Below are positions 741 to 11,810 of a stretch of DNA of 11,810 bases, piece by piece. The position numbers were made by a program, and so were the translations under genes. Under the pieces are notes generated by a model, which made no database searches, was not told where the DNA came from, and saw only the letters and a program-made list of their open reading frames with translations. Origin of the DNA: a virus (Duplodnaviria; Heunggongvirae; Uroviricota; Caudoviricetes). The stretch lies in the IMG/VR virus record IMGVR_UViG_2778261375_000004; one strand, given 5' to 3'. Each line of letters opens with the position of its first letter. Position 1 is the stretch's first letter.

Positions 741-2744
741 TTAACGAACCAGATGCAGGAAGTGCAGGTGTTTTTCGTACTGGTCCAGTATGTCATTAAT
801 CAGCTGTTCCTGATTCCAGCCCATTACATCATAATTTTGGCCGCCCTCTTTGAGATAGACTTCAGCGCGATAATATCGATGTTGTTCACTCTGCTGCTCA
901 TCATTATCCAGCGCAGCGAGCGCGAAGGTCGGTGAGTTATACCCGCGAAGCCTCACTTCATATATATAATTCAGCTCGTTGCCCAAATCGACTTCAAGGC
1001 GAATACGATCCTCGGCGGCGTCACTGATGTGGCTTATCGTTCCCTGCTTGTTAAGTTCCTCCTGAACCAGCGTCATGGCGGGTTGGATAATGTCGTCCAT
1101 AAAACGTTTCACAAGAGAGCGCTTCGGCAAATACGCGATATTGCGTAACCTTCTCTGCCAGGGAATTGGGTTACGTGCAGCCGTAGGAGCAATAGTCGCC
1201 ATGCTAAGGCTTTCACGCTTGGTCAAATCCCGACGCAGGGCTTTTAACAGTCCGTATATGGATATTAATAAGATAACTGAGAAGGGCAATGCACTCGCTA
1301 TCGTTACGGTTTGCAACGCACTCAGCCCCCCTGCGATCAGCAGGGCAATAGCAACAACGCCCATGAGCGATGCCCAGAAAATTCGCTGCCAGACGGGCGT
1401 GTTTGCCACCCCACCTGATGCCAGAGTATCCACAACCATTGCCCCCGAATCAGCAGACGTTACAAAGAAGACGATGACCATCGCCATTGCAATGAATGAC
1501 AGCACGGAAGAGAACGGGAAATGCTCCAGGAAATTAAACAGGGCAAGCGCAACATCCTGCTGAACGGTATTGGCGAGGTCAGTGGCGCCCTGGTTCATGA
1601 TGAGATAGATGGCGCTGTTTCCAAACACCGTCATCCACATGAGCGTAAAGCCGGCGGGAACAAACAACACGCCAGTCACGAACTCACGAATTGTCCTGCC
1701 GCGGGAAACGCGTGCAATGAACATACCTACAAACGGCGACCATGAAAGCCACCATCCCCAGTATAATAATGTCCAGCCCCCCAGCCAGTTGCTCGACTTG
1801 GGTTCATACGCGTAAAGGTTGAACGTTTTACTCACCAGTTCCGACAGATAACCACCCGTATTTTCCACAAATGACTTCAGCAGAAGCACAGTGGGACCCA
1901 GGCACAAGACCAGCGCCAGGAGCAACACCGCCAGGCCCAGATTAAGCTCAGACAGGATGCGTATTCCCTTGTCCAGGCCGGACACCACCGAAATCGTCGC
2001 TAACCCCGTGATGACCACGATCAAAATGACCTGTACCGTTTCATTGATGGGCACGCCGAAAAGATGGTTCAAACCGGCATTCACCTGCAATACACCGTAA
2101 CCCAGTGATGTTGCAACGCCAAAGACAGTGCCTATCACGGCGAAGATATCAACCGCGTGGCCTATAGGCCCGTAAATGCGATCGCCGATAATGGGATAGA
2201 GCGCAGAACGCAGCGTTAAAGGCAGACCGTGACGGTAACTGAAAAAGGCCAGAATCAGCGCCACGATGGCATAAATTGCCCATGCGTGCAGACCCCAGTG
2301 GAAGAACGTCAGGCGCATGGCTTCCTTCGCTGCCGCAACGGTCTCTGGAGTGCCGACAGGTGGCGAAAGATAATGCATCACAGGTTCGGCAACGCCAAAG
2401 AACATCAGGCCGATCCCCATCCCTGCCGAAAAAAGCATCGCGAACCAGGAGTGGTAGCTGAAATCAGGCTGCGCATGGTCTGGGCCCAGCTTTATATCAC
2501 CGTAACGTGAGAGTCCAAGGAACGTGACGCTCAGTAAAATCAGGGCCACAGCAAGTATGTAGAACCAGCTGGCATTCGTGAAGATTTGTTGCTGAAGTAG
2601 TTTAAAATTTTTGTCGGCGACATCCGGGAATACGGCGGCAAAGGCGACAAGAAGGAAAATTAGCAAAGCAGATGTAAAGAATACCGCTTTGTTAATCTGG
2701 CTTGTAGACTTCTTTGGGGTTGTATCATTTTCACTCATAATCAT
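741..2744 (-). CDS. betU: BCCT-family (betaine/carnitine/choline) osmolyte transporter, BetU-like
   Basis: 667-aa polytopic membrane protein with the BCCT signature region WTLLYWGWWLSWSPFVGMFIARVSRGRTIREF and clear collinearity with my recollection of E. coli BetT. Length and context match the BetU paralogue recalled from uropathogenic E. coli; the symbol is tentative. Two adjacent ATG starts (2744, 2738). Confidence 0.85.
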   Translation of the reverse strand: MIMSENDTTPKKSTSQINKAVFFTSALLIFLLVAFAAVFPDVADKNFKLLQQQIFTNASWFYILAVALILLSVTFLGLSRYGDIKLGPDHAQPDFSYHSWFAMLFSAGMGIGLMFFGVAEPVMHYLSPPVGTPETVAAAKEAMRLTFFHWGLHAWAIYAIVALILAFFSYRHGLPLTLRSALYPIIGDRIYGPIGHAVDIFAVIGTVFGVATSLGYGVLQVNAGLNHLFGVPINETVQVILIVVITGLATISVVSGLDKGIRILSELNLGLAVLLLALVLCLGPTVLLLKSFVENTGGYLSELVSKTFNLYAYEPKSSNWLGGWTLLYWGWWLSWSPFVGMFIARVSRGRTIREFVTGVLFVPAGFTLMWMTVFGNSAIYLIMNQGATDLANTVQQDVALALFNFLEHFPFSSVLSFIAMAMVIVFFVTSADSGAMVVDTLASGGVANTPVWQRIFWASLMGVVAIALLIAGGLSALQTVTIASALPFSVILLISIYGLLKALRRDLTKRESLSMATIAPTAARNPIPWQRRLRNIAYLPKRSLVKRFMDDIIQPAMTLVQEELNKQGTISHISDAAEDRIRLEVDLGNELNYIYEVRLRGYNSPTFALAALDNDEQQSEQHRYYRAEVYLKEGGQNYDVMGWNQEQLINDILDQYEKHLHFLHLVR

Positions 2745-3078
2745 TTATTCCATTAATTAAATCCGCACTGGATAGAAGGTACTACCTCTCACAGAGTAGC
2801 AAAGTTCAACTGGCTATGCGGGGTTAATCGGAATGCATGGTGGAATGAGTGCCGATACAAATCATCCTATATTCTAAGGAGTTTTAAGTTACTCAGCCTG
2901 CCAATTACTGGGGCATTTAATTTGTATGATCTGTATCAAAGCTGGGATATAAGTTAAGTGAAGTATATTAGGCACGAATTACCAGCGTCTGCTCTTGGCA
3001 CAAAGCGGACAACCACGCTAGCTCTACCCTGTGCCACAAAATGTCAATTTGCATCTGAACTAATGCACTTTAATCTCG

Positions 3079-3501
3079 TCACTTCAATAAATACCGAACA
3101 TCCCCCTGATAAAACGACAATATGCGCTGCATAACTTCGCTCTTCCGGCACTCGCGACAGATTATGTTTAGGCGACTGTCGTAGCGACGTATTTCTCCGT
3201 CAGGTAATGACCAGATAAGGTCCGGATCAACCACAACCGGTTTCTTCAGCTTTGCCCTCGATAATTTTTTGCGGGCATTTTGCCAGTCTTTACGAGCCTG
3301 TTCAGACGGGAATAACCCGTAGCCAGAATTGTATACATCGCCACTGGCAACCAGCTCTCTGGCCAGAACGCTCATCAGATATCTTGTTGCCCCAGTTTTA
3401 GCTTCCAGTTGTCGTAACGTCTCGCGCCCACTCTGGCGTACGAGTTCAAGAACCTGCCCTTTAATTTTTTCCCGCTCTTCTTGTGTAAAAACTTTTGCCA
3501 C
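3079..3501 (-). CDS. hypothetical prophage protein (140 aa), possible winged-helix DNA-binding segment
   Basis: GTG start at 3499-3501 preceded by a perfect AGGAGG Shine-Dalgarno 4 nt upstream on the minus strand. It is the last gene of the minus-strand replication operon. No family recognised; residues ETLRQLEAKTGATRYLMSVLAREL look HTH-like. Confidence 0.55.
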   Translation of the reverse strand: MAKVFTQEEREKIKGQVLELVRQSGRETLRQLEAKTGATRYLMSVLARELVASGDVYNSGYGLFPSEQARKDWQNARKKLSRAKLKKPVVVDPDLIWSLPDGEIRRYDSRLNIICRECRKSEVMQRILSFYQGDVRYLLK

Positions 3502-3541
3502 AAGCCCTCCTGAAAATTACCTCATGACCAGAAATTAACAC

Positions 3542-4612
3542 TTACCCCCTGAAGCCCGGCGGAATTTCGTTATCCGGTTCAGAAATATGATTCACACAAC
3601 GCTGGTTGTTCGTGCCGCTTACCGGGAGCAACCAGGGGTTCTCAAAATTCCGGTCCGGTCCAAAAAACGTCGTCGCTCGCTGAACAAATTCCGTTCCCGT
3701 TTTCCCGGTAGCCGCCAAGTATCTTGCGTAACGCCTCACGCCATCCAGCATGGCCTCTGGTGGCACCCCCTCGCGTAATCTGGCCTTCCAGGCACTGAAA
3801 GCGGATTTCTTCGGGTTTGCCCCAGCACGCAACGGGTACTCCCGCCAGACCTGTTCGAACACATCCGGATAATCCACTCGTCCCACAGACTGCCCGGTGT
3901 TTTCCGGGACTACCCGATCGGCTTCCCGCTGAATGGCGGAATCGGCTTCAGGCTGCTGCAGTTGGTGTGATTGCTCCGCCCTTGCGGTCATCACCTGCTG
4001 CACAGCGCCCGAATCGGCTTTCAGCGCATACGCTGAATCGGCTTCCGGTGTCGTGCCTGCTGGCTGACCAAGATTGACGGTCTGAACATCCCCTGCCTGG
4101 TTCGTGGCGTTTTTTACGCCATGGACCATAGTGTTTTGATCTTCTTGATCTGTATCTTTATCTGTATCTTTATCTGTCGTGACTCGTCGTGACATGTGCG
4201 TGACATTTCGTGACGCGCCGTGACAATCGCCATTTTGTTCCCGCTTTCTTTCCCTCTCTCGCTGCGCCCTCTTGCGCTCTGCAGGAGATTTTGCGGTTTG
4301 CGAAATATTGCCGTTGTCCTCTTTAAGCACCTGGCGTTTTTCCCATCCAGTGATTAAATCACCATCAAGTACCCGCCCCTGCATCGTCTGCAAAATTGAA
4401 TCAATTACCTCTTCTGTCACGTCGAGCGCACTTGCCAAATCTTCTGTCGTGACATCAATGTGACCTCGCGTGACATTTCGTGACGCGCTCACCAGGAGGT
4501 GGATATACACTGCCATCACTGTTGCAATTGGCTGCCCTGACACCCTGGCAATTGTTCGCCACTTAGGGTCATTTGGCATGTCATGCCATAATCTGAGCCA
4601 GGCGTTAGCCAT
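3542..4612 (-). CDS. Prophage replication initiator with DnaT-like C-terminal domain (YdaU-type)
   Basis: The C-terminus ...FGPDRNFENPWLLPVSGTNNQRCVNHISEPDNEIPPGFRG matches the C-terminal end of E. coli primosomal protein DnaT (...SEPDSQIPPGFRG) as recalled. Start taken as ATG 4610-4612 with AAGAGG 5 nt upstream; the track start GTG 4618 lies inside that RBS. Gene position corresponds to ydaU of Rac. Confidence 0.8.
   Translation of the reverse strand: MANAWLRLWHDMPNDPKWRTIARVSGQPIATVMAVYIHLLVSASRNVTRGHIDVTTEDLASALDVTEEVIDSILQTMQGRVLDGDLITGWEKRQVLKEDNGNISQTAKSPAERKRAQRERERKREQNGDCHGASRNVTHMSRRVTTDKDTDKDTDQEDQNTMVHGVKNATNQAGDVQTVNLGQPAGTTPEADSAYALKADSGAVQQVMTARAEQSHQLQQPEADSAIQREADRVVPENTGQSVGRVDYPDVFEQVWREYPLRAGANPKKSAFSAWKARLREGVPPEAMLDGVRRYARYLAATGKTGTEFVQRATTFFGPDRNFENPWLLPVSGTNNQRCVNHISEPDNEIPPGFRG
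4148..4224. repeat. Iteron-like array I: 12-bp AT-rich tandem repeat followed by five helically phased CGTGAC hexamers
   Basis: ATCTGTATCTTT at 4148-4159 and 4160-4171, partial third copy to 4183. CGTGAC at 4178, 4188, 4199, 4209, 4219 (spacing 10, 11, 10, 10 bp). Lies inside the replication-initiator CDS. Confidence 0.6.
4415..4487. repeat. Iteron-like array II: phased CGTGAC/TGTGAC hexamers plus one inverted copy
   Basis: GTCACG (inverted) at 4415-4420; CGTGAC at 4447, 4468, 4478 and TGTGAC at 4458 (spacing 11, 10, 10 bp). The 21-mer GCGTGACATTTCGTGACGCGC is identical at 4198-4218 and 4467-4487. Confidence 0.55.
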
Positions 4613-4683
4613 ACTCACCTCTTTTGATACCGAATCTTTTTACTCACAAATTGCCGGAAGTGATCCGGTATGAATATTGCGAG

Positions 4684-5109
4684 TCAATGCACAGCCACAA
4701 TATTTCCTGCAGGGCCACCACGATTCATCTGGTTGAAACCAGCGATCGCCACTGCGACAAAATCATCAGCGTCTCTCACCAGTCGTTCCCGCGTCTCCAC
4801 TAGTTCCCGAAAATAGGCTGAGCTATGGCTGCGCATTCGGGCCACCAGCAGAGGTGGCATTGCTTTTTCGATAGCTGGTAACAACGCCTGAATTTTTTCA
4901 ACTGCATCAGGGGTGTCTTTCTCTACCCAGCGGAAAATTTTCTGGGTATTGCGAGCCAGGGCTTCCGGATGGCTGTCGTCATACAGTTCTGGGAACGTCA
5001 TACCCAGTTCAAAATAAGCCCTGGTTATTTCAGCTGCCGGAACTTTTTCACCGTCCGGATGCGCCCAGGCATTCATCGCCATGCGGATGTGTTCATGCTT
5101 GATTTTCAT
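4684..5109 (-). CDS. YdaT-like protein (CII-analogue / formerly annotated toxin family)
   Basis: 141 aa, start ATG 5107-5109 with AGGAG 8 nt upstream. N-terminus MKIKHEHI... and position (between the Cro-like gene and the replication initiator) correspond to ydaT of Rac-type prophages as recalled. Confidence 0.6.
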   Translation of the reverse strand: MKIKHEHIRMAMNAWAHPDGEKVPAAEITRAYFELGMTFPELYDDSHPEALARNTQKIFRWVEKDTPDAVEKIQALLPAIEKAMPPLLVARMRSHSSAYFRELVETRERLVRDADDFVAVAIAGFNQMNRGGPAGNIVAVH

Positions 5110-5374
5110 GAATCAAGCTCCTAGAAAGTGGTTGTGTTAACATTTTGGTATCTTCCAGCTCGGGCCAAATATTCATCCAATCAAAAGGCCTTAGTTGCTG
5201 ACGTGTAACTTCACCATTACTGGCTCGCTCAATAAGGACACATAACGATGCCCCTAACACTTGACCTTTACTCAATGCCTTTCTTAGATAACCGATGCTG
5301 GTACCACACTCGCATGCAAACATACGCTGTTCATCTGACGAAAGAGAATTGAGAAATATTCTTAATTCTTCCAT
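5093..5374 (-). CDS. Cro-like HTH regulator (YdaS family)
   Basis: 93 aa, ATG 5372-5374 with AAGGAG 5 nt upstream. Transcribed divergently from the repressor. The segment ...ERASNGEVTRQQLRPFDW resembles the YdaS/Cro-like family as recalled. Overlaps the next gene by 17 bp. Confidence 0.65.
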   Translation of the reverse strand: MEELRIFLNSLSSDEQRMFACECGTSIGYLRKALSKGQVLGASLCVLIERASNGEVTRQQLRPFDWMNIWPELEDTKMLTQPLSRSLIHENQA

Positions 5375-5399
5375 AGCTACTCCTTAGTAAACACAGCAA

Positions 5400-5468
5400 A
5401 GAATACCCACAGGTAAACAAAAGTCAATACCCACAGGTTGTTTACCTTGCAGTAATCGCATCTATTAT
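5400..5468. promoter_or_regulatory. Immunity switch: divergent promoters with operator pair O1/O2 (TACC-N4-GGTA)
   Basis: O1 TACCCACAGGTA (5404-5415) and O2 TACCCACAGGTT (5428-5439), each within the direct repeat AATACCCACAGGT. Minus-strand promoter for the Cro-like gene: -35 TTGACT (plus-strand 5422-5427), 16-bp spacer, -10 TATTCT (5400-5405). Plus-strand promoter for the repressor: -35 TTTACC (5441-5446), 16-bp spacer, -10 TATTAT (5463-5468). Confidence 0.55.
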
Positions 5469-5474
5469 TTACCT

Positions 5475-5894
5475 ATGGACAAATATGAATTTAGACGACA
5501 GCAACTCATCAAAATTCGTGATGAGAAATGCGATGGTAAAGCGGTTAACGTGGCCAGAAAGATCGGGCGCGAGCCTTCTTATGTATCAAGAATGTTGTAC
5601 CCAGAGGGGAAAAAGGGAAAAAAACGGATCGCTGATGATATGGTGGAGATTATCGAAGAGTCCTTTGGGTTACCCCGGGGATGGATGGATGGTATCGTTT
5701 CATCATCAACGAACACAGCCTCCAGTTATGAAACAAGGGTTCTAACGCCACGACAACGTATTTTTTTAGATCTCTTAGACGAACTGCCAGAAAGTGAAGC
5801 GGATAACTTATTAAAAACTCTTGAAGAGAAAAAACAGTATTACAATATGATCTACGAAGAAATCCGTAAAAAGAAAGCACAAAACGCATCATAG
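5475..5894 (+). CDS. Prophage CI-type repressor (HTH, no peptidase S24 domain; DicA/RacR-like architecture)
   Basis: 139 aa; N-terminal HTH (GKAVNVARKIGREPSYVSRML); C-terminal region resembles the dimerisation region of DicA as recalled. Divergent from the Cro-like gene. No SD upstream of the ATG, consistent with a leaderless mRNA. Confidence 0.75.
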   Translation: MDKYEFRRQQLIKIRDEKCDGKAVNVARKIGREPSYVSRMLYPEGKKGKKRIADDMVEIIEESFGLPRGWMDGIVSSSTNTASSYETRVLTPRQRIFLDLLDELPESEADNLLKTLEEKKQYYNMIYEEIRKKKAQNAS

Positions 5895-5934
5895 CTCACC
5901 AAACAACTAGTCACCAGTTAAGACACCGCAAAAA

Positions 5935-5975
5935 GTTACCCATGGGTATTTACTTTTTAAATACCTATGGGTAAC
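5935..5975 (+). promoter_or_regulatory. Second operator pair O3/O4 (OL-like) at the start of the rightward early operon
   Basis: O3 TACCCATGGGTA (5937-5948, perfect 12-bp palindrome) and O4 TACCTATGGGTA (5962-5973), 25 bp centre to centre. Together they form a 41-bp near-palindrome GTTACCCATGGGTATTTA-N5-TAAATACCTATGGGTAAC. Same TACC-N4-GGTA consensus as O1/O2. Confidence 0.55.
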
Positions 5976-6159
5976 CTTCTTTTCATACCAACCCACCCCG
6001 CCCCACAGAATGCAGGGCAATACTTCGAGTTACCAGGCAGTGGTCAGGGGTTAAGTAGCCAGCCCGAGGCGTAAGAACATGACGGCAGGGTTCAACTTTA
6101 ATAACTATGCAGCAGGTTTTTGTTCCGCTACCCCGGCGTTAAGGGGAAATGAGGTCAGC

Positions 6160-6315
6160 ATGGATACTATCGATCTTGGCAACAGCGAATCTCTGGTATG
6201 TGGCGTGTTCCCCAACCAAGACGGTACGTTCACCGCGATGACGTATACCAAAAGCAAAACGTTTAAAACCGAAAATGGTGCCCGTCGCTGGCTGGAAAGA
6301 AACTCAGGTGAGTGA
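6160..6315 (+). CDS. ydfA: small prophage protein, YdfA-like (51 aa)
   Basis: ATG 6160 with GAGG 5 nt upstream; 51 aa (MDTIDLGNSESLVCGVFPNQDGTF...), first gene after the OL-like operators. Size and position match ydfA of the Qin dicB operon as recalled. The ORF-track start at 6079 gives a 27-aa N-terminal extension with a poorer RBS. Confidence 0.55.
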   Translation: MDTIDLGNSESLVCGVFPNQDGTFTAMTYTKSKTFKTENGARRWLERNSGE

Positions 6316-6316
6316 T

Positions 6317-6445
6317 ATGGATTTCGACACAATCATGGAAAAGGCTTACGAAGAATACTTCGAAGGTCTTGCCGAAGGCGAAGAAGCTCTCAGCTTCAAC
6401 GAATTTAAACAGGCGCTTTCCAGTTCGGCAAAATCTAACGGCTGA
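6317..6445 (+). CDS. ydfB: small acidic prophage protein, YdfB-like (42 aa); not in the ORF track (below size cutoff)
   Basis: ATG 6317 one base after the upstream stop (TGA-T-ATG), with AGGTGA 6 nt upstream. Translation MDFDTIMEKAYEEYFEGLAEGEEALSFNEFKQALSSSAKSNG, stop TGA 6443-6445. Size and position match ydfB. Confidence 0.55.
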   Translation: MDFDTIMEKAYEEYFEGLAEGEEALSFNEFKQALSSSAKSNG

Positions 6446-6474
6446 TAAGCGAAACAGCACCGCGAGGAATCAGT

Positions 6475-6690
6475 ATGCAGAAACGAGAACCCGTCATCAT
6501 CGCGCCAGACTATACCGATGATGAACTTTATGAGTGGATGCACCAGAAAATTAATGCAGCGCAGGATCTGAAATGGGCCAATGAAGCTAGGGCTAAGCAG
6601 GCTGAAAATCTGTCCGCTCTGGAGCAGGATATCACCAATCTGGAAAAAGCAGCAGCATTAAGCATTGCCAGAATGATTACAGGTTGGTAA
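6475..6690 (+). CDS. ydfC: small prophage protein, YdfC-like (71 aa)
   Basis: ATG 6475 with GAGGA 6 nt upstream; protein-like composition (MQKREPVIIAPDYTDDELYEWMHQKINAAQDLKW...). Position and size match ydfC. Confidence 0.6.
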   Translation: MQKREPVIIAPDYTDDELYEWMHQKINAAQDLKWANEARAKQAENLSALEQDITNLEKAAALSIARMITGW

Positions 6691-7002
6691 TAAAGGAGTT
6701 CTCCACGGGTGAGGTGGAGTGCGTGTGCCGGACACGGGTGAGCATCCGGCACTGACAGTTTACTGAAAGGATATTTCCCTGAAAAGTCAGACCATAACGC
6801 GAAAGCGCACGGCGAGGTAGCTGGTTCATAGATAGCCTGTCGTTAAATTTTCGTCGACCGTGCGCTTCCGGTTGTGGCAATCCGCGAAATGGCGCGGCGG
6901 TAAGTATGGCGGGGTTATTCCTTCCCCCGTTGAGGACACCGGGTTGTCAGGTTGACCATACGCTTAAGTGACAACCCCGCTGCAACGCCCTCTGTTATCA
7001 AT

Positions 7003-7060
7003 TTTCTGGTGACGTTTGGCGGTATCAGTTTTACTCCGTGACTGCTCTGCCGCCCTTTTT
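7003..7060 (+). ncRNA. dicF: DicF small regulatory RNA (cell-division/ftsZ-targeting sRNA of lambdoid prophages)
   Basis: TTTCTGGTGACGTTTGGCGGTATCAGTTTTACTCCGTGACTGCTCTGCCGCCCTTTTT matches the DicF sequence as I recall it. It ends in an intrinsic terminator (interrupted GGCGG...CCGCC stem plus T5 at 7056-7060) and sits between ydfC-like and dicB as in Qin. The 5' end is approximate (RNase-processed in vivo). Confidence 0.7.
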
Positions 7061-7229
7061 AAAGTGAATTTTGTGATGTGGTGAATGCGGCTGAGCGCAC
7101 GCGGAACAGTTAAAACCAAAAACAGTGTTATGGGTGGATTCTCTGTATCCGGCGTTAATTGTTAACTGGTTAACGTCACCTGGAGGCACCAGGCACCGCA
7201 TCACAAAATTCATTGTTGAGGACGCGATA

Positions 7230-7418
7230 ATGAAAACGTTATTACCAAACGTTAATACGTCTGAAGGTTGTTTTGAAATTGGTGTCACTATCAGTAACCC
7301 AGTATTTACTGAAGATGCCATTAACAAGAGAAAACAAGAACGGGAGCTATTAAATAAAATATGCATTGTTTCAATGCTGGCTCGTTTACGTCTGATGCCA
7401 AAAAGATGTGCACAATGA
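7230..7418 (+). CDS. dicB: Cell-division inhibitor DicB (62 aa)
   Basis: ATG 7230 with GAGGA 7 nt upstream. Translation MKTLLPNVNTSEGCFEIGVTISNPVFTEDAINKRKQERELLNKICIVSMLARLRLMPKRCAQ matches my recollection of E. coli DicB (62 aa). The ORF-track start at 7125 is an upstream extension without an RBS. Confidence 0.75.
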   Translation: MKTLLPNVNTSEGCFEIGVTISNPVFTEDAINKRKQERELLNKICIVSMLARLRLMPKRCAQ

Positions 7419-7606
7419 ATTCAGCATTTGCGCTTGTTCTGACAGTTTTTCTTGTTTCCGGAGAGCCAGTTGATATTGCAGTCAGTGTTCACAGGACAAT
7501 GCAGGAGTGTATGACTGCAGCAACCGAACAGAAAATTCCCGGTAACTGTTACCCGGTCGATAAAGTTATTCACCAGGATAATATCGAAATCCCGGCAGGT
7601 CTTTAA
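7415..7606 (+). CDS. ydfD: small membrane protein, YdfD-like (63 aa)
   Basis: ATG 7415 overlaps the dicB stop (ATGA, translational coupling). N-terminal hydrophobic helix MNSAFALVLTVFLVSG...; 63 aa, matching the size and position of ydfD (Qin lysis-associated protein). The track start at 7361 is less likely. Confidence 0.6.
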   Translation: MNSAFALVLTVFLVSGEPVDIAVSVHRTMQECMTAATEQKIPGNCYPVDKVIHQDNIEIPAGL

Positions 7607-7699
7607 AACAGTTCCGTAATAAATATCCGGTTTCATTCTTATATGCCAGCAATGGCAGGGATTTATTCATCCTTAAATCTGTCATGAGGTTAAAATAAA

Positions 7700-10171
7700 A
7701 TGAGTAAAGTCTTTATTTGCGCCGCTATTCCTGACGAACTGGCAACAAGGGAAGAAGGCGCTGTGGCTGTAGCCACAGCCATTGAAGCTGGCGACGAACG
7801 CCGTGCTCGAGCAAAATTTCACTGGCAATTCCTGGAACATTATCCGGCTGCTCAGGACTGCGCTTATAAATTTATTGTCTGCGAGGATAAACCTGGCATA
7901 CCCCGCCCAGCCCTCGATTCATGGGATGCTGAATATATGCAGGAAAACCGCTGGGATGAGGATTCTGCTTCTTTTGTTCCGGTTGAGACTGAATCCGATC
8001 CGATGAACGTCACTTTTGACAAGCTGGCCCCTGAAGTACAGAACGCTGTCATGGTTAAGTTCGACACATGTGAAAACATCACCGTTGATATGATTATTAG
8101 CGCGCAGGAATTGTTGCAGGAAGACATGGCAACATTCGACGGACATATCGTTGAAGCGTTGATGAAAATGCCAGAAGTTAACGCCATGTATCCGGAGCTT
8201 AAGTTGCACGCCATTGGGTGGGTTAAGCATAAATGTATTCCTAGTGCTAAATGGCCCGAAATTCAGGCAGAGATGCGCATCTGGAAAAAACGTCGCGAAG
8301 GTGAACGCAAGGAAACCGGAAAATACACGTCTGTTGTTGATCTCGCCCGCGCCAGAACCAATCAACAGTACACTGAAAATTCAACAGGAAAAATCTGCCC
8401 GGTCATTGCTGCCATTCATCGCGAATACAAGCAGACATGGAAAACACTGGATGACGAACTGGCCTACGCTCTCTGGCCTGGTGATGTGGGTGCCGGAAAC
8501 ATTGACGGCAGCATCCATCGCTGGGCAAAAAAAGAAGTTATCGACAACGACCGCGAAGACTGGAAGCGTATCTCGGCATCAATGCGCAAACAGCCTGATG
8601 CCCTTCGCTACGACCGCCAAACTATTTTTGGCCTTGTCCGTGAGCGTCCGATCGACATTCACAAAGATCCCGTAGCACTGAACAAATATATCTGCGAATA
8701 CCTGACGACAAAGGGCGCGTTTGAGAATGAAGAAACAGACCTGGGCACTGTTGATGTTCTCCAGTCATCAGAAACACAAACTGATGCAGTGGAAACTGAG
8801 GTATCTGATATCCCAAAAAATGAAACCGCGCCGGAAGCTGAACCATCTGTAGAGCGTGAGGGGCCGTTCTATTTCCTCTTCGCAGATAAGGACGGAGAAA
8901 AATACGGTCGCGCAAACAAACTTTCTGGTCTGGATAAGGCACTGGCTGCTGGCGCCACTGAAATCACAAAAGAAGAATATTTTGCCCGAAAAAATGGCAC
9001 ATACACGGGCTTACCGCAAAATGTAGATACCGCTGAAGATTCAGAACAACCAGAGCCGATAAAAGTTACCGCTGACGAAGTAAACAAAATTATGCAGGCA
9101 GCCAATATCAGCCAGCCTGACGCCGATAAGTTGCTTGCTGCATCACGTGGTGAATTTGTTGAAGGGATTAGTGACCCGAATGATCCGAAATGGGTTAAGG
9201 GGATCCAGACCCGCGATTCTGTGAACCAGAACCAGCATGAATCGGAACGGAACTACCAAAAAGCGGAACAAAACAGTCCAAATGCGTTACAAAACGAGCC
9301 AGAAACGAAACAGCCTGAACCAGTGGCGCAACAGGAAGTGGAAAAAGCCTGCACCGCTTGCGGTCAGACCGGCGGCGGCAACTGCCCTGATTGTGGCGCG
9401 GTGATGGGCGACGCAACATACCAAGAAACATTCGATGAAGAGTATCAGGTTGAAGTTCAGGAAGATGATCCGGAGGAAATGGAAGGCGCTGAACATCCAC
9501 ACAAGGAGAACACTGGCGGCAATCAGCATCACAATAGCGATAATGAAACTGGCGAGACGGCAGATCACCCAATTAAGGTGAACGGTCATCACGAAATCAC
9601 ATCCACCAGCAGGACGTGTGACCATCTAATGATCGACCTTGAAACCATGGGAAAAAATCCTGATGCCCCGATCATCTCAATAGGTGCAATATTTTTCGAT
9701 CCGCAAACCGGAGATATGGGACCGGAATTTAGTAAGACTATCGATCTGGAAACTGCTGGCGGAGTCATTGATCGGGACACCATTAAATGGTGGCTTAAGC
9801 AATCACGCGAAGCGCAATCTGCCATTATGACCGATGAAATCCCGTTAGATGATGCACTGTTACAATTGCGGGAATTTATCGACGAAAACTCCGGTGAATT
9901 TTTTGTTCATGTCTGGGGAAATGGAGCCAACTTCGACAACACGATTTTGCGCCGTTCATACGAACGGCAGGGGATCCCCTGCCCGTGGCGTTACTACAAC
10001 GATCGCGATGTACGCACAATCGTTGAGCTGGGGAAAGCCATAGACTTCGATGCCAGAACGGCTATTCCATTCGAAGGTGAGCGCCATAATGCACTTGATG
10101 ACGCCCGTTACCAGGCAAAATACGTTTCAGTTATCTGGCAAAAACTGATCCCGAGTCAGGCTGATTCTTAA
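7700..10171 (+). CDS. RecE/ExoVIII-like prophage protein with C4 zinc ribbon and C-terminal DEDDh (DnaQ-like) 3'-5' exonuclease domain
   Basis: 823 aa, ATG 7700 with GAGGT 9 nt upstream. DEDDh motifs read from the translation: Exo I M-I-D-L-E (D646, E648; nt 9629-9643), Exo II HVWGNGANFDN (D746), Exo III H-N-A-L-D-D (H796, D801). Cys4 motif CTAC...CPDC (~nt 9350-9397). Segment KLLAASRGEFVEGISDPNDPKWVKGIQTRD resembles RecE as recalled. Corresponds to an intact version of the IS-disrupted ydfE of Qin. Confidence 0.8.
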   Translation: MSKVFICAAIPDELATREEGAVAVATAIEAGDERRARAKFHWQFLEHYPAAQDCAYKFIVCEDKPGIPRPALDSWDAEYMQENRWDEDSASFVPVETESDPMNVTFDKLAPEVQNAVMVKFDTCENITVDMIISAQELLQEDMATFDGHIVEALMKMPEVNAMYPELKLHAIGWVKHKCIPSAKWPEIQAEMRIWKKRREGERKETGKYTSVVDLARARTNQQYTENSTGKICPVIAAIHREYKQTWKTLDDELAYALWPGDVGAGNIDGSIHRWAKKEVIDNDREDWKRISASMRKQPDALRYDRQTIFGLVRERPIDIHKDPVALNKYICEYLTTKGAFENEETDLGTVDVLQSSETQTDAVETEVSDIPKNETAPEAEPSVEREGPFYFLFADKDGEKYGRANKLSGLDKALAAGATEITKEEYFARKNGTYTGLPQNVDTAEDSEQPEPIKVTADEVNKIMQAANISQPDADKLLAASRGEFVEGISDPNDPKWVKGIQTRDSVNQNQHESERNYQKAEQNSPNALQNEPETKQPEPVAQQEVEKACTACGQTGGGNCPDCGAVMGDATYQETFDEEYQVEVQEDDPEEMEGAEHPHKENTGGNQHHNSDNETGETADHPIKVNGHHEITSTSRTCDHLMIDLETMGKNPDAPIISIGAIFFDPQTGDMGPEFSKTIDLETAGGVIDRDTIKWWLKQSREAQSAIMTDEIPLDDALLQLREFIDENSGEFFVHVWGNGANFDNTILRRSYERQGIPCPWRYYNDRDVRTIVELGKAIDFDARTAIPFEGERHNALDDARYQAKYVSVIWQKLIPSQADS

Positions 10172-10182
10172 TGTTCAACTGT

Positions 10183-10214
10183 CGCCGGTTGTGACTGGTA
10201 TTCTGCAACCGGCG
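10183..10214 (+). other. Stable hairpin between the exonuclease gene and the excisionase-position gene
   Basis: 9-bp perfect stem CGCCGGTTG (10183-10191) / CAACCGGCG (10206-10214) with a 14-nt loop; not followed by a T-run, so it is not a canonical intrinsic terminator. Confidence 0.35.
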
Positions 10215-10243
10215 CTCGTCTAATGTAAGAGATAAAGAAATCG

Positions 10244-10495
10244 ATGAGCGAAGTAATCATGATTGTCTCTCCCGGCAAATGGGTATCCGAAGAGCAGTTA
10301 ATTGCGCTGAAAGGAATAAAAAAAGGTACGTTAAAAAAGGCCCGGGAAAAATCGTTTATGGAAGGAAGGGAATATAAGCATGTCGCTCATGACGGTATGC
10401 CATGGGATAACAGCCCATGCTTTTACAACCTGGAAGAAATTGATCGCTGGATTGAGCGCCAGGCATCAGCAAGACCAAGACGTCATCTTACTTGA
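10244..10495 (+). CDS. small protein in excisionase position (putative Xis / DNA-binding recombination directionality factor)
   Basis: 83 aa, directly upstream of and co-oriented with the integrase (20-35 bp gap), basic and small. Assignment is by position and size only; no motif recognised with certainty. Confidence 0.45.
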   Translation: MSEVIMIVSPGKWVSEEQLIALKGIKKGTLKKAREKSFMEGREYKHVAHDGMPWDNSPCFYNLEEIDRWIERQASARPRRHLT

Positions 10496-10529
10496 CTAAA
10501 AGCCACACTAACTAATGAGAGAAGTTGAA

Positions 10530-11810
10530 ATGAAATATCCGACAGGCGTGGAAAACCATGGAGGGAAATTACGTATCTGGTTTGTTTATAAAGGCGTAAG
10601 AGTCAGGGAAAACCTGGGGGTTCCTGACACAGCAAAAAACAGGCGCGTTGCAGGCGAGCTACGCGCCTCTGTTTGTTACGCAATAAAAACTGGTGTTTTC
10701 GACTATGCAAAACAGTTTCCCTCCTCACGCAATCTGGAAAAATTTGGTGAGACCCGACAAGATTTAACCATAAAAGAACTGGCTGAAAAATTTCTGGCAC
10801 TGAAAGAAACTGAAGTCGCAAAAACATCACTCAACACATACCGTGCCGTCATCAAAAATATCCTGAGCATAATCGGTGAAAAAAATCTTGCCTCATCGAT
10901 TAATAAAGAAAAATTACTGGAGGTTCGTAAAGAGCTACTGACTGGATACCAGATCCCCAAAAGTAACTATATTGTTACACAACCAGGAAGATCGGCTGTA
11001 ACTGTAAATAATTACATGACAAATCTTAACGCCGTGTTCCAGTTTGGTGTTGATAACGGTTACCTGGCAGATAACCCGTTTAAGGGGATCTCGCCATTAA
11101 AGGAATCAAGAACCATTCCGGATCCTCTTTCGCGGGAGGAATTCATCCGTCTTATCGATGCGTGCAGAAATCAGCAAGCCAAAAATTTATGGTGTGTTTC
11201 TGTTTATACTGGCGTTCGCCCTGGTGAGCTGTGTGCACTTGGATGGGAGGACATAGATCTGAAAAATGGAACAATGATGATCAGGAGAAATTTAGCAAAA
11301 GACCGTTTCACGGTACCAAAAACACAGGCGGGAACCAATCGGGTCATTCATCTTATTAAGCCAGCAATCGACGCTCTCCGGAGTCAGATGACATTAACGA
11401 GACTGAGCAAAGAGCATATCATTGATGTTCACCTCAGAGAGTATGGCAGAACAGAAAAACATAAATGCACCTTTGTTTTTCAACCTGAAGTGTCAGCGAG
11501 AGTAAAAAATTATGGTGACCATTTTACCGTTGACTCAATAAGGCAGATGTGGGACGCAGCGATAAAACGTGCCGGACTCCGCCATCGAAAATCATATCAG
11601 TCGAGACATACTTATGCCTGCTGGTCGCTGACAGCTGGTGCTAACCCGGCATTTATAGCAAACCAGATGGGCCATGCAGATGCGCAAATGGTATTTCAGG
11701 TATACGGAAAATGGATGTCTGAAAACAATAATGCACAGGTAGCTTTGTTAAATACACAGTTAAGCGAGTTTGCCCCAACCATGCCCCATAACGAAGCAAT
11801 GAAAAATTAA
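10530..11810 (+). CDS. int: Tyrosine site-specific integrase (phage integrase family)
   Basis: Catalytic signature in the C-terminal domain: box I Arg (TGVRPGEL), box II ...SRHTYACWSLTAGANPAFIANQMGHADAQMVFQVYGKWM with the H-x-x-R and nucleophile Tyr pattern. Start taken as ATG 10530 (purine-rich GAGAAG 5-6 nt upstream); the ORF-track start 10515 is an alternative. Stop TAA at 11808-11810, the window end. Confidence 0.9.
   Translation: MKYPTGVENHGGKLRIWFVYKGVRVRENLGVPDTAKNRRVAGELRASVCYAIKTGVFDYAKQFPSSRNLEKFGETRQDLTIKELAEKFLALKETEVAKTSLNTYRAVIKNILSIIGEKNLASSINKEKLLEVRKELLTGYQIPKSNYIVTQPGRSAVTVNNYMTNLNAVFQFGVDNGYLADNPFKGISPLKESRTIPDPLSREEFIRLIDACRNQQAKNLWCVSVYTGVRPGELCALGWEDIDLKNGTMMIRRNLAKDRFTVPKTQAGTNRVIHLIKPAIDALRSQMTLTRLSKEHIIDVHLREYGRTEKHKCTFVFQPEVSARVKNYGDHFTVDSIRQMWDAAIKRAGLRHRKSYQSRHTYACWSLTAGANPAFIANQMGHADAQMVFQVYGKWMSENNNAQVALLNTQLSEFAPTMPHNEAMKN

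Follow-up and report, generated by a model that had tools for sequence, protein, structure and literature searches.

A DUF977 relative of lambda Ren behind a loader-less replication initiator in a prophage at the Qin position

Replication modules of lambda, Rac and the present prophage

Ren of bacteriophage lambda is a small accessory protein, dispensable for replication itself, that permits phage replication despite Rex-type abortive infection or exclusion. The lambda gene order is O-P-ren, and in phage records the lambda-type ren adjoins gene P. Transcription of ren, together with O and P, is from the rightward promoter, with all three being co-translated (bioRxiv 10.1101/2021.04.19.439022); the same preprint cites Weigel and Seitz (2006) for the statement that every 'initiator-helicase loader' module carries ren, and Toothman and Herskowitz (1980) for the poor growth of ren mutants when the host is a Rex+ lysogen, a defect suppressed by mutations in O and P. 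In two-hybrid experiments reported there by Thomason et al., Ren interacts with both RexA and RexB.

The Rac prophages provide a second point of comparison. In Rac of E. coli K-12, ydaU is followed by ydaV and a shorter, 186-amino-acid ydaW, and then by rzpR, without an intervening lygF. Rac-SA53 carries ydaT, ydaU, 'ydaV', 'ydaW' and lygF in succession; here, 'ydaV' is a lambda-P-like loader, matching both Phage_lambda_P (PF06992) and PHROG_109, and 'ydaW' encodes a DUF1627 protein. Rac proper does therefore possess a helicase loader behind its initiator—DnaC-like YdaV in K-12, P-like in Rac-SA53—as had been assumed in the first-pass annotation of the locus described below. The Stx phage 75/02 is built along similar lines, with genes for primosomal protein I, a DnaC-like loader (matching PF01695 with an E-value of 8e-19), a DUF1627 protein and LygF. 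The name 'LygF' is a mere locus label, originating from the Sdr I region of Salmonella Enteritidis; beyond it, the literature we found on LygF / DUF977 is confined to the assignment of a winged-helix fold to DUF977 and its occasional fusion to Fic domains (PMC2686095).

The window analysed here is an 11,810-nucleotide stretch of a Caudoviricetes genome (IMG/VR record IMGVR_UViG_2778261375_000004). Working along the minus strand in the direction of transcription, the first gene of the rightward operon is Cro/YdaS-like (5093–5374; PHROG_35, E 1e-22), with a score against the Pfam YdaS_toxin model (25.8 bits) that falls under the family cut-off of 30. This is followed by a YdaT / CII-like gene (4684–5109; Pfam YdaT_toxin, E 7e-10; PHROG_163 'CII-like', E 9e-46), a replication initiator of 358 amino acids (3542–4618) and the gene that forms the subject of this study (3079–3501). 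The early-right operon very probably reads cro-like, cII/YdaT-like, initiator, DUF977. Diverging from it on the plus strand, in the position expected for a repressor, is a 139-amino-acid reading frame (5475–5894) whose counterpart in phage Tritos is labelled 'CI repressor'; the two share approximately 76% nucleotide identity over a 117-bp piece only, and no Pfam family was matched.

The module had been described as 'Rac-type' on first inspection, a description that fits its Rac-like regulatory and replication genes, with YdaS-/YdaT-like regulators and a DnaT-like tail on the initiator, but not its location: the prophage adjoins rspB and carries dicB, ydfA-D and DicF, placing it at the Qin position. 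An Rfam scan of the window returned DicF (7004–7055) and nothing else.

Family membership, homology to Ren and predicted structure

The gene lies on the minus strand (3079–3501) and encodes 140 amino acids from a GTG start codon. Its upstream sequence, read on the same strand, is TTTCAGGAGGGCTT-GTG, and so contains a Shine-Dalgarno AGGAGG (3506–3511) positioned four nucleotides before the start; the motif sits within a 40-bp spacer (3502–3541, minus strand) that extends from the stop codon of the initiator to the GTG, as read directly from the sequence. Start codon, ribosome-binding site and the basic character of the product (pI 9.8; 28 Lys + Arg versus 18 Asp + Glu) had all been recognised in the first-pass annotation, and each is confirmed. 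Estimates of dN/dS range from 0.10 to 0.29 against five phage homologues, and from 0.10 to 0.31 over all pairs, indicating purifying selection on the protein. The reading frame is a genuine gene.

It had also been called an 'orphan' and 'unrelated'; this description does not survive. The protein almost certainly belongs to the widespread DUF977 / PHROG_142 family. It scores 99.4 bits with Pfam DUF977 (PF06163; E 2e-28), for which the cut-off is 22.1, residues 1–135 aligning with profile positions 1–133 of 134, and it matches PHROG_142, 'Ren-like exclusion protein', with an E-value of 4.7e-45. A search of 5.8 billion proteins yielded 867 relatives at E<=1e-3; among the best 120 of these nearly all are 137–143 amino acids long, and those entries with a name are mostly 'DUF977 family protein [Escherichia coli]'. 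Coverage of the whole profile, taken together with a length typical for the family, rules out a truncated pseudogene; homology to the N-terminus of some longer protein, one of two outcomes that the first-pass annotation would have taken as refutation, is not seen. Nor is conservation in related elements lacking, which was the other such outcome, so that the gene itself stands and what fails is its description as an orphan in the loader's slot: homologues are present in phages and prophages alike, and a tblastn search of phage records finds the gene in 24, variously labelled 'LygF', 'Ren-like exclusion protein' or 'DUF977 family protein'. After clustering at 50% identity the DUF977 family is nevertheless small, with 99 representatives, many of which are fragments. 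When 5426 complete E. coli genomes were searched with a 1956-bp query comprising initiator and DUF977 gene, 4287 matched some part of it and 1534 contained at least 80% of the query, many of them 100% identical. The gene is already known: the copy in E. coli AR_452 is WP_001151151.1, annotated by RefSeq as 'DUF977 family protein', and PHROGs groups the family with lambda Ren.

That grouping can be followed at several levels. Lambda Ren itself (NP_040633; 96 amino acids) matches PHROG_142 with an E-value of 1.6e-41. A direct BLASTP comparison of the two proteins aligns NIICRECRKSEVMQRILSFY with NLVFKECRQSAAMKRVLAVY (E 5e-6), corresponding to a C-terminal motif, N-x5-C-R-x-S-x2-M-x-R-x-L, that is common to DUF977 and Ren; when 16 relatives are aligned together with Ren, no variation is seen at N112, C118, R119, S121, M124 or R126. 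With hhalign, a profile of 25 DUF977 proteins matches Ren with a probability of 94.7% (E 6e-8), over an alignment that extends from the helix-turn-helix region (…TGAT…) through to the C-terminal motif. A remote-homology search had been proposed at the outset as a means of placing the protein, and it is to lambda Ren that it leads. On these alignments DUF977 is to be regarded as a longer relative, or long form, of lambda Ren.

Structure prediction, proposed at the same time, gave an AlphaFold2 model (built with the family alignment; mean pLDDT 74). The predicted winged helix occupies approximately residues 7–64 (helices 7–24, 29–36 and 40–53; hairpin 57–64), and is followed by a basic helix (67–84), a low-confidence linker (~85–115) and a C-terminal helix (122–132), with the conserved Ren motif spanning residues 112–131; the C-terminal half as a whole is of low confidence (pLDDT 48–75). 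Searching with this model against the PDB and BFVD, Foldseek returned generic winged-helix proteins only (MarR, IclR, ArsR, GntR, Z-alpha), none below an E-value of 1e-3 and with query-normalised TM-scores of ~0.26–0.42, so providing no specific functional analogue. A single-protein sequence search of the PDB gave chance-level matches only (E > 0.1), and the PADLOC defence models gave no match.

A profile search of PDB sequences was similarly generic, all matches being to winged-helix proteins, with the Z-alpha domain of PKZ at the top (E 2e-4). Z-alpha domains contact Z-DNA through a conserved Asn and Tyr of the recognition helix; where 'NRHLY' has these two residues, Arg stands in the DUF977 family consensus and Met and Ala in the window protein, so we rejected a Z-alpha identity. 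DUF1627, considered as a possible paralogue of DUF977, was likewise set aside, the two showing weak winged-helix similarity only (hhalign, 16%).

The loader question: gene order in relatives and the initiator tail

The first-pass annotation had observed that no loader follows the DnaT-like initiator in this window, and in this it was correct: there is no helicase-loader gene between the initiator (3542–4618) and DUF977, just the 40-bp spacer. It had further proposed that the 140-amino-acid protein takes the loader's slot. As regards homology, the protein carries no AAA+/IstB_IS21 or Bac_DnaA match in Pfam, NCBIfam or PHROG, and no Phage_lambda_P (PF06992) / PHROG_109 match in Pfam or PHROG, and we reject loader homology; such profiles do match the DnaC-like protein of 75/02 and 'ydaV' of Rac-SA53. 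As regards position, loader-containing modules (Rac-SA53, 75/02) run initiator, loader, DUF1627, DUF977, such that the place of the loader is two genes further upstream and is not taken by DUF977. What DUF977 very probably occupies is the 'ren slot', at the end of the early-right replication operon. The family is also not bound to one type of initiator, as indicated by the gene set of PhiR46_1: here DUF977 comes after different early genes, no initiator or loader is annotated between it and the repressor, and, of replication genes, the annotation shows just a primase in the vicinity, encoded on the opposite strand.

How often an initiator is found directly before DUF977 was assessed in a census that combined the 80 closest IMG/VR loci with individual phage and genome loci, 86 loci being classified in all. 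The initiator directly precedes DUF977 in 71 of the 86, with a DnaC-like loader in 10 and a P-like loader in two. Loader and DUF1627 gene come and go together: every locus with a loader has DUF1627 between that loader and DUF977, and loci lacking the one lack the other as well. The 40-bp spacer recurs in the loader-less loci from IMG/VR, with the gene preceding DUF977 ending at offset −44, and in all 71 loader-less loci the initiator terminates in a DnaT-like tail (…EPDxxIPPGFRG)—which also answers the earlier call to look for co-occurrence of the 140-residue protein with DnaT-like initiators in other prophages. As the census is biased towards close relatives and contains just two initiator bodies, these counts are a measure of recurrence and not of independence.

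The two bodies are represented among complete phage genomes. Tritos encodes CI, Cro, a YdaT-like protein (labelled 'Rha family') and a 356-amino-acid replication protein, followed by 40 bp and DUF977; the initiator of the window is 99% identical to this replication protein, and blastn aligns 2979–5121 of the window with Tritos at 95.8% identity. In HannyBb and mEp460_ev081 a different, O-like initiator of 321 amino acids is again followed by a 40-bp spacer and DUF977. Despite the different initiator bodies, tail, spacer and the start of DUF977 are conserved in a DNA alignment that includes both Tritos and HannyBb. In the literature searched we found no paper on Tritos, HannyBb or Rac-SA53, and the status of the phages as viable is taken from their GenBank records as complete genomes; that for HannyBb gives bird faeces as its source. 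The initiator-only module is a normal and common variant, in E. coli prophages as well as in complete phage genomes.

The initiator of the window is of the YdaU / 'primosomal protein I' type, matching PHROG_3729 over its full length (E 2e-257). Its last 24 codons (3545–3616, minus strand), ending …QRCVNHISEPDNEIPPGFRG, form the DnaT-like tail: positions 156–179 of the 179 in the NCBIfam DnaT model (NF002770) align to initiator residues 335–358. The tail is also carried by the O-like initiator of HannyBb and by the initiator of 75/02, the latter in front of a DnaC-like loader; it is missing from both YdaU of Rac-SA53 and lambda O, each of which is partnered with a P-type loader. This distribution suggests that the tail may couple the initiator to DnaC-type loading, making use of host DnaC where the phage has no loader of its own. 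A loader-less initiator so equipped presumably recruits DnaB-DnaC of the host directly. The absence of a loader is a matter separate from the function of DUF977. The function of the DnaT C-terminal tail is not addressed in the primosome literature that we examined; if the DnaT-like tail is what frees these initiators from the need for a phage-encoded loader, this would have implications for the recruitment of DnaB-DnaC by DnaT in replication restart.

Two sets of repeats within the initiator gene likely represent a candidate origin (4143–4224), by analogy with the lambda ori inside gene O. Three AT-rich 12-bp tandem repeats (4143–4178) abut five copies of CGTGAC at a spacing of ~10 bp (4178, 4188, 4199, 4209 and 4219; span 4178–4224); these constitute the repeat families D1 and D3. 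A second CGTGAC cluster is found at about 4446–4484, with copies at 4448, 4469 and 4479, so that eight of the 11 copies in the entire window fall within the two initiator-gene clusters.

On its 3′ side, the DUF977 gene is separated from the start codon of a BCCT transporter gene by 334 bp (2745–3078). The first-pass annotation treated this as a '330-bp non-coding gap'; it does indeed hold no listed gene, but is composite. The first ~100 bp (2979–3078, minus strand) are conserved phage flank, as judged by blastn against Tritos, and homology to Tritos and to many prophages stops at about 2979–2988, which we take as the cargo junction. The remaining ~234 bp form the upstream region of the inserted cargo (741–2978, minus strand), consisting otherwise of the BCCT gene itself (741–2744; E 7e-199), which is absent from Tritos at the equivalent position. 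E. coli AR_452 carries a five-gene cargo between its DUF977 gene and hokD, encoding BCCT, DUF2254, LysR, gamma-glutamylcyclotransferase and MFS proteins. A scan for terminators and promoters across 2600–3700 found none on the relevant strand, and none exceeding the expectation from shuffled sequence. Downstream, the prophage is rearranged, with both the cargo island and an IS21 fragment.

Proposed role, and comparison with known systems

Taking homology, gene position and the lambda Ren literature together, a Ren-like role for DUF977 is the most likely. Lying at the end of the early-right operon, it would be expected to be expressed only after prophage induction or infection, alongside the replication proteins. 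We propose that DUF977 would act as an early accessory protein, shielding phage replication from Rex-type exclusion; its winged helix and the invariant C-terminal helix (N112, C118, R119, S121, M124, R126) may contact Rex-like proteins, the initiation complex, or both. Such an action against Rex-type exclusion, drawn by analogy with lambda, is put forward tentatively and is, on our own estimate, somewhat short of an even chance; there are no rexAB genes in the window, and both the low identity to Ren and the additional ~45 residues of DUF977 mean that the functions of the two may have diverged. The explanation as a whole—a Ren-family gene in the ren slot, with an anti-exclusion role, behind an initiator-only module—is the one that, on balance, we favour. 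'Replication accessory factor' had been among the options listed in the first-pass annotation, as had the remnant considered below, which we reject.

An alternative, which we consider unlikely, is that DUF977 is a winged-helix transcription factor with no part in exclusion, for instance setting early-to-late timing or controlling 'nin' or cargo genes. A canonical N-terminal winged helix, best structural and profile matches to MarR, IclR, GntR and ArsR, a further match to PHROG_2391 'DNA binding protein' (E 1e-5), the existing winged-helix classification (PMC2686095) and a pI of 9.8 would all sit comfortably with a regulator. The strongest conservation in the family, however, is found in the C-terminal helix common to Ren rather than in the recognition helix; the gene is associated with immunity and replication modules of several kinds, and this speaks against an operator specific to one module; and no regulatory role of lambda Ren is reported in either PMC3640518 or bioRxiv 10.1101/2021.04.19.439022.

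The co-inheritance of tail, 40-bp spacer and DUF977 in loader-less modules, behind two unrelated initiator bodies, could be read in another way: that the DnaT-like tail and DUF977 constitute a unit which replaces the phage loader, jointly capturing host DnaB-DnaC at the origin. This we hold to be improbable; if true, it would hint at roles both for Ren and for the DnaT C-terminal tail. The related idea of a replication co-factor in place of the loader, DUF977 and tail together bringing host DnaB(-DnaC) to the origin, finds some encouragement in the replication role suspected for Ren (bioRxiv 10.1101/2021.04.19.439022), but we judge it very improbable: DUF977 is equally found behind modules with DnaC-like and P-like loaders, and in PhiR46_1, signatures of AAA+/IstB or lambda P are missing from it, and lambda replicative killing and P-lethality require O and P, not ren (PMC3640518).

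That the reading frame is a remnant, be it a truncated pseudogene or a chance product of a deletion in the loader region, might be suggested by the rearrangement downstream (cargo island, IS21 fragment) and by the absence here of the loader and DUF1627 genes of relatives, but is refuted to the point of being scarcely conceivable by the full-length profile match and family-typical length, dN/dS values of 0.10–0.31, a strong ribosome-binding site with a conserved start position, and the same gene order in the complete genomes of Tritos, HannyBb and mEp460_ev081.

Our preferred reading, of a Ren-family gene in the ren slot, is thus a correction: the gene is neither a stand-in for the loader nor a remnant. 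The value of this as a discovery is small, the gene being already annotated and the loader-less arrangement common.

Set against lambda, the resemblance extends to architecture and position. Both proteins combine an N-terminal winged helix with the C-terminal motif, and both are encoded by the final gene of a replication block served by the rightward promoter. They differ in length (96 amino acids for Ren, 140 for DUF977), with identity of just ~22–27%, DUF977 containing an extra insertion of ~45 residues (basic helix plus linker) that is missing in lambda Ren; and whilst the lambda-type gene adjoins a P-type loader, in the window DUF977 comes directly after the initiator.

The Rac modules of K-12 and Rac-SA53 share with the window YdaS-/YdaT-like regulators and an initiator, followed by accessory genes, and in the complete Rac-SA53 module lygF closes the replication block as DUF977 does here. 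Both Rac modules have a loader, of one kind or the other, and the window has none; the DUF1627 gene upstream of lygF in Rac-SA53 is similarly absent from the window, and lygF itself has been lost from Rac of K-12. Transporter cargo is found nearby in each case, trkG in K-12 Rac and the BCCT gene in the window prophage, the latter residing not at Rac but at the Qin site by rspB, with dicB and DicF.

Closest of all in arrangement are Tritos, HannyBb and mEp460_ev081, each with an initiator ending in …EPDxEIPPGFRG, the 40-bp spacer and DUF977; HannyBb and mEp460_ev081 differ in the O-like body of their initiator, and downstream, where the window has the BCCT island, Tritos and mEp460_ev081 have a different, opposite-strand reading frame of ~445 amino acids. 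At the level of the protein, the window gene is a direct DUF977 counterpart of LygF from Rac-SA53, from the Shigella Stx phages 75/02 and POCJ13 and from the Sdr I region of Salmonella Enteritidis, with 65–96% identity to the phage LygF proteins, and its DNA is 100% identical to many E. coli loci annotated 'DUF977 family protein'. Apart from a GTG start codon where the LygF copies of loader-containing modules (Rac-SA53, 75/02) have ATG at the equivalent position, there is no substantive difference between them.

The C-terminal tail of the initiator and loader genes

The initiator closes with a tail of 20–24 residues (…RCVNHISEPDxEIPPGFRG; window 3545–3616, minus strand), which corresponds to the very C-terminal end of DnaT from E. 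coli; this tail also occurs in phage Tritos (L003), Stx phage 75/02 (L005), HannyBb (L006) and mEp460_ev081 (L088). In HannyBb and mEp460_ev081 it appears grafted onto an unrelated, O-like initiator. The DnaT-like tail is present in all of the loci where the DUF977 gene follows the initiator without an intervening loader (71/71), as well as in some DnaC-containing modules; initiators paired with P-type loaders do not carry it. The tail may represent a peptide for recruiting DnaC, or the DnaB–DnaC complex.

Where a loader gene (DnaC-like or P-like) lies between the initiator and DUF977, it is accompanied by a gene for a DUF1627 protein, itself containing two winged-helix domains; the pair being either both there or both missing (Rac-SA53, L002; 75/02; and IMG/VR loci L019–L021, L026, L050, L052, L063, L083, L085 and L086). 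DUF977 starts with GTG in the loader-less modules of the window (3499–3501), Tritos and HannyBb; it starts with ATG in the remaining three modules compared, namely Rac-SA53 and 75/02 (both with loaders) and PhiR46_1 (L007).

Repeats within the initiator gene

The initiator gene also contains two clusters of iteron-like repeats. In the first (4143–4224), three AT-rich tandem repeats of 12 bp are followed by five copies of CGTGAC at ~10-bp spacing, with a second CGTGAC cluster (4446–4484) some 260 bp away. CGTGAC occurs 11 times in the window, and 8 of these copies belong to the two clusters. The repeats probably correspond to the phage origin.

The cargo island

The cargo block (window 741–2978; 2744–8994 in E. 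coli AR_452, L001) is inserted ~100 bp past the DUF977 stop codon, ahead of hokD, and encodes a BCCT transporter, DUF2254, a LysR regulator, a gamma-glutamylcyclotransferase and an MFS transporter. In AR_452 the DUF2254 gene comes after that for BCCT; collinearity between AR_452 and the window begins at window position 526. The non-collinear section (1–525) contains an ORF (16–459) matching positions 103–238 of the 238-position Pfam profile IstB_IS21, i.e. the 3′ portion of an IstB gene of the IS21 family; in the strain of the window, an IS element has thus interrupted the cargo island. In Tritos and mEp460_ev081 the place of the cargo is taken by an oppositely oriented ORF of ~445 aa, and K-12 Rac has trkG near the corresponding point.

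Prophage site and left arm

The left arm (window 5972–11810; also seen in AR_452) comprises ydfA/B/C, DicF RNA (7004–7055), dicB, ydfD, a recE-like gene, xis and int, with rspB adjoining the integration site. The recE-like ORF (823 aa, 7700–10171; annotated as exonuclease VIII in Tritos) is unbroken in the window; the collinear stretch of AR_452, ~99.97% identical, is nonetheless classed in RefSeq as a pseudogene carrying a frameshift (‘3'-5' exoribonuclease domain-containing protein’). Both location and left arm are those of Qin, not Rac, even though the prophage has YdaS/YdaT-like regulatory and replication genes and a DnaT-like tail on its initiator.
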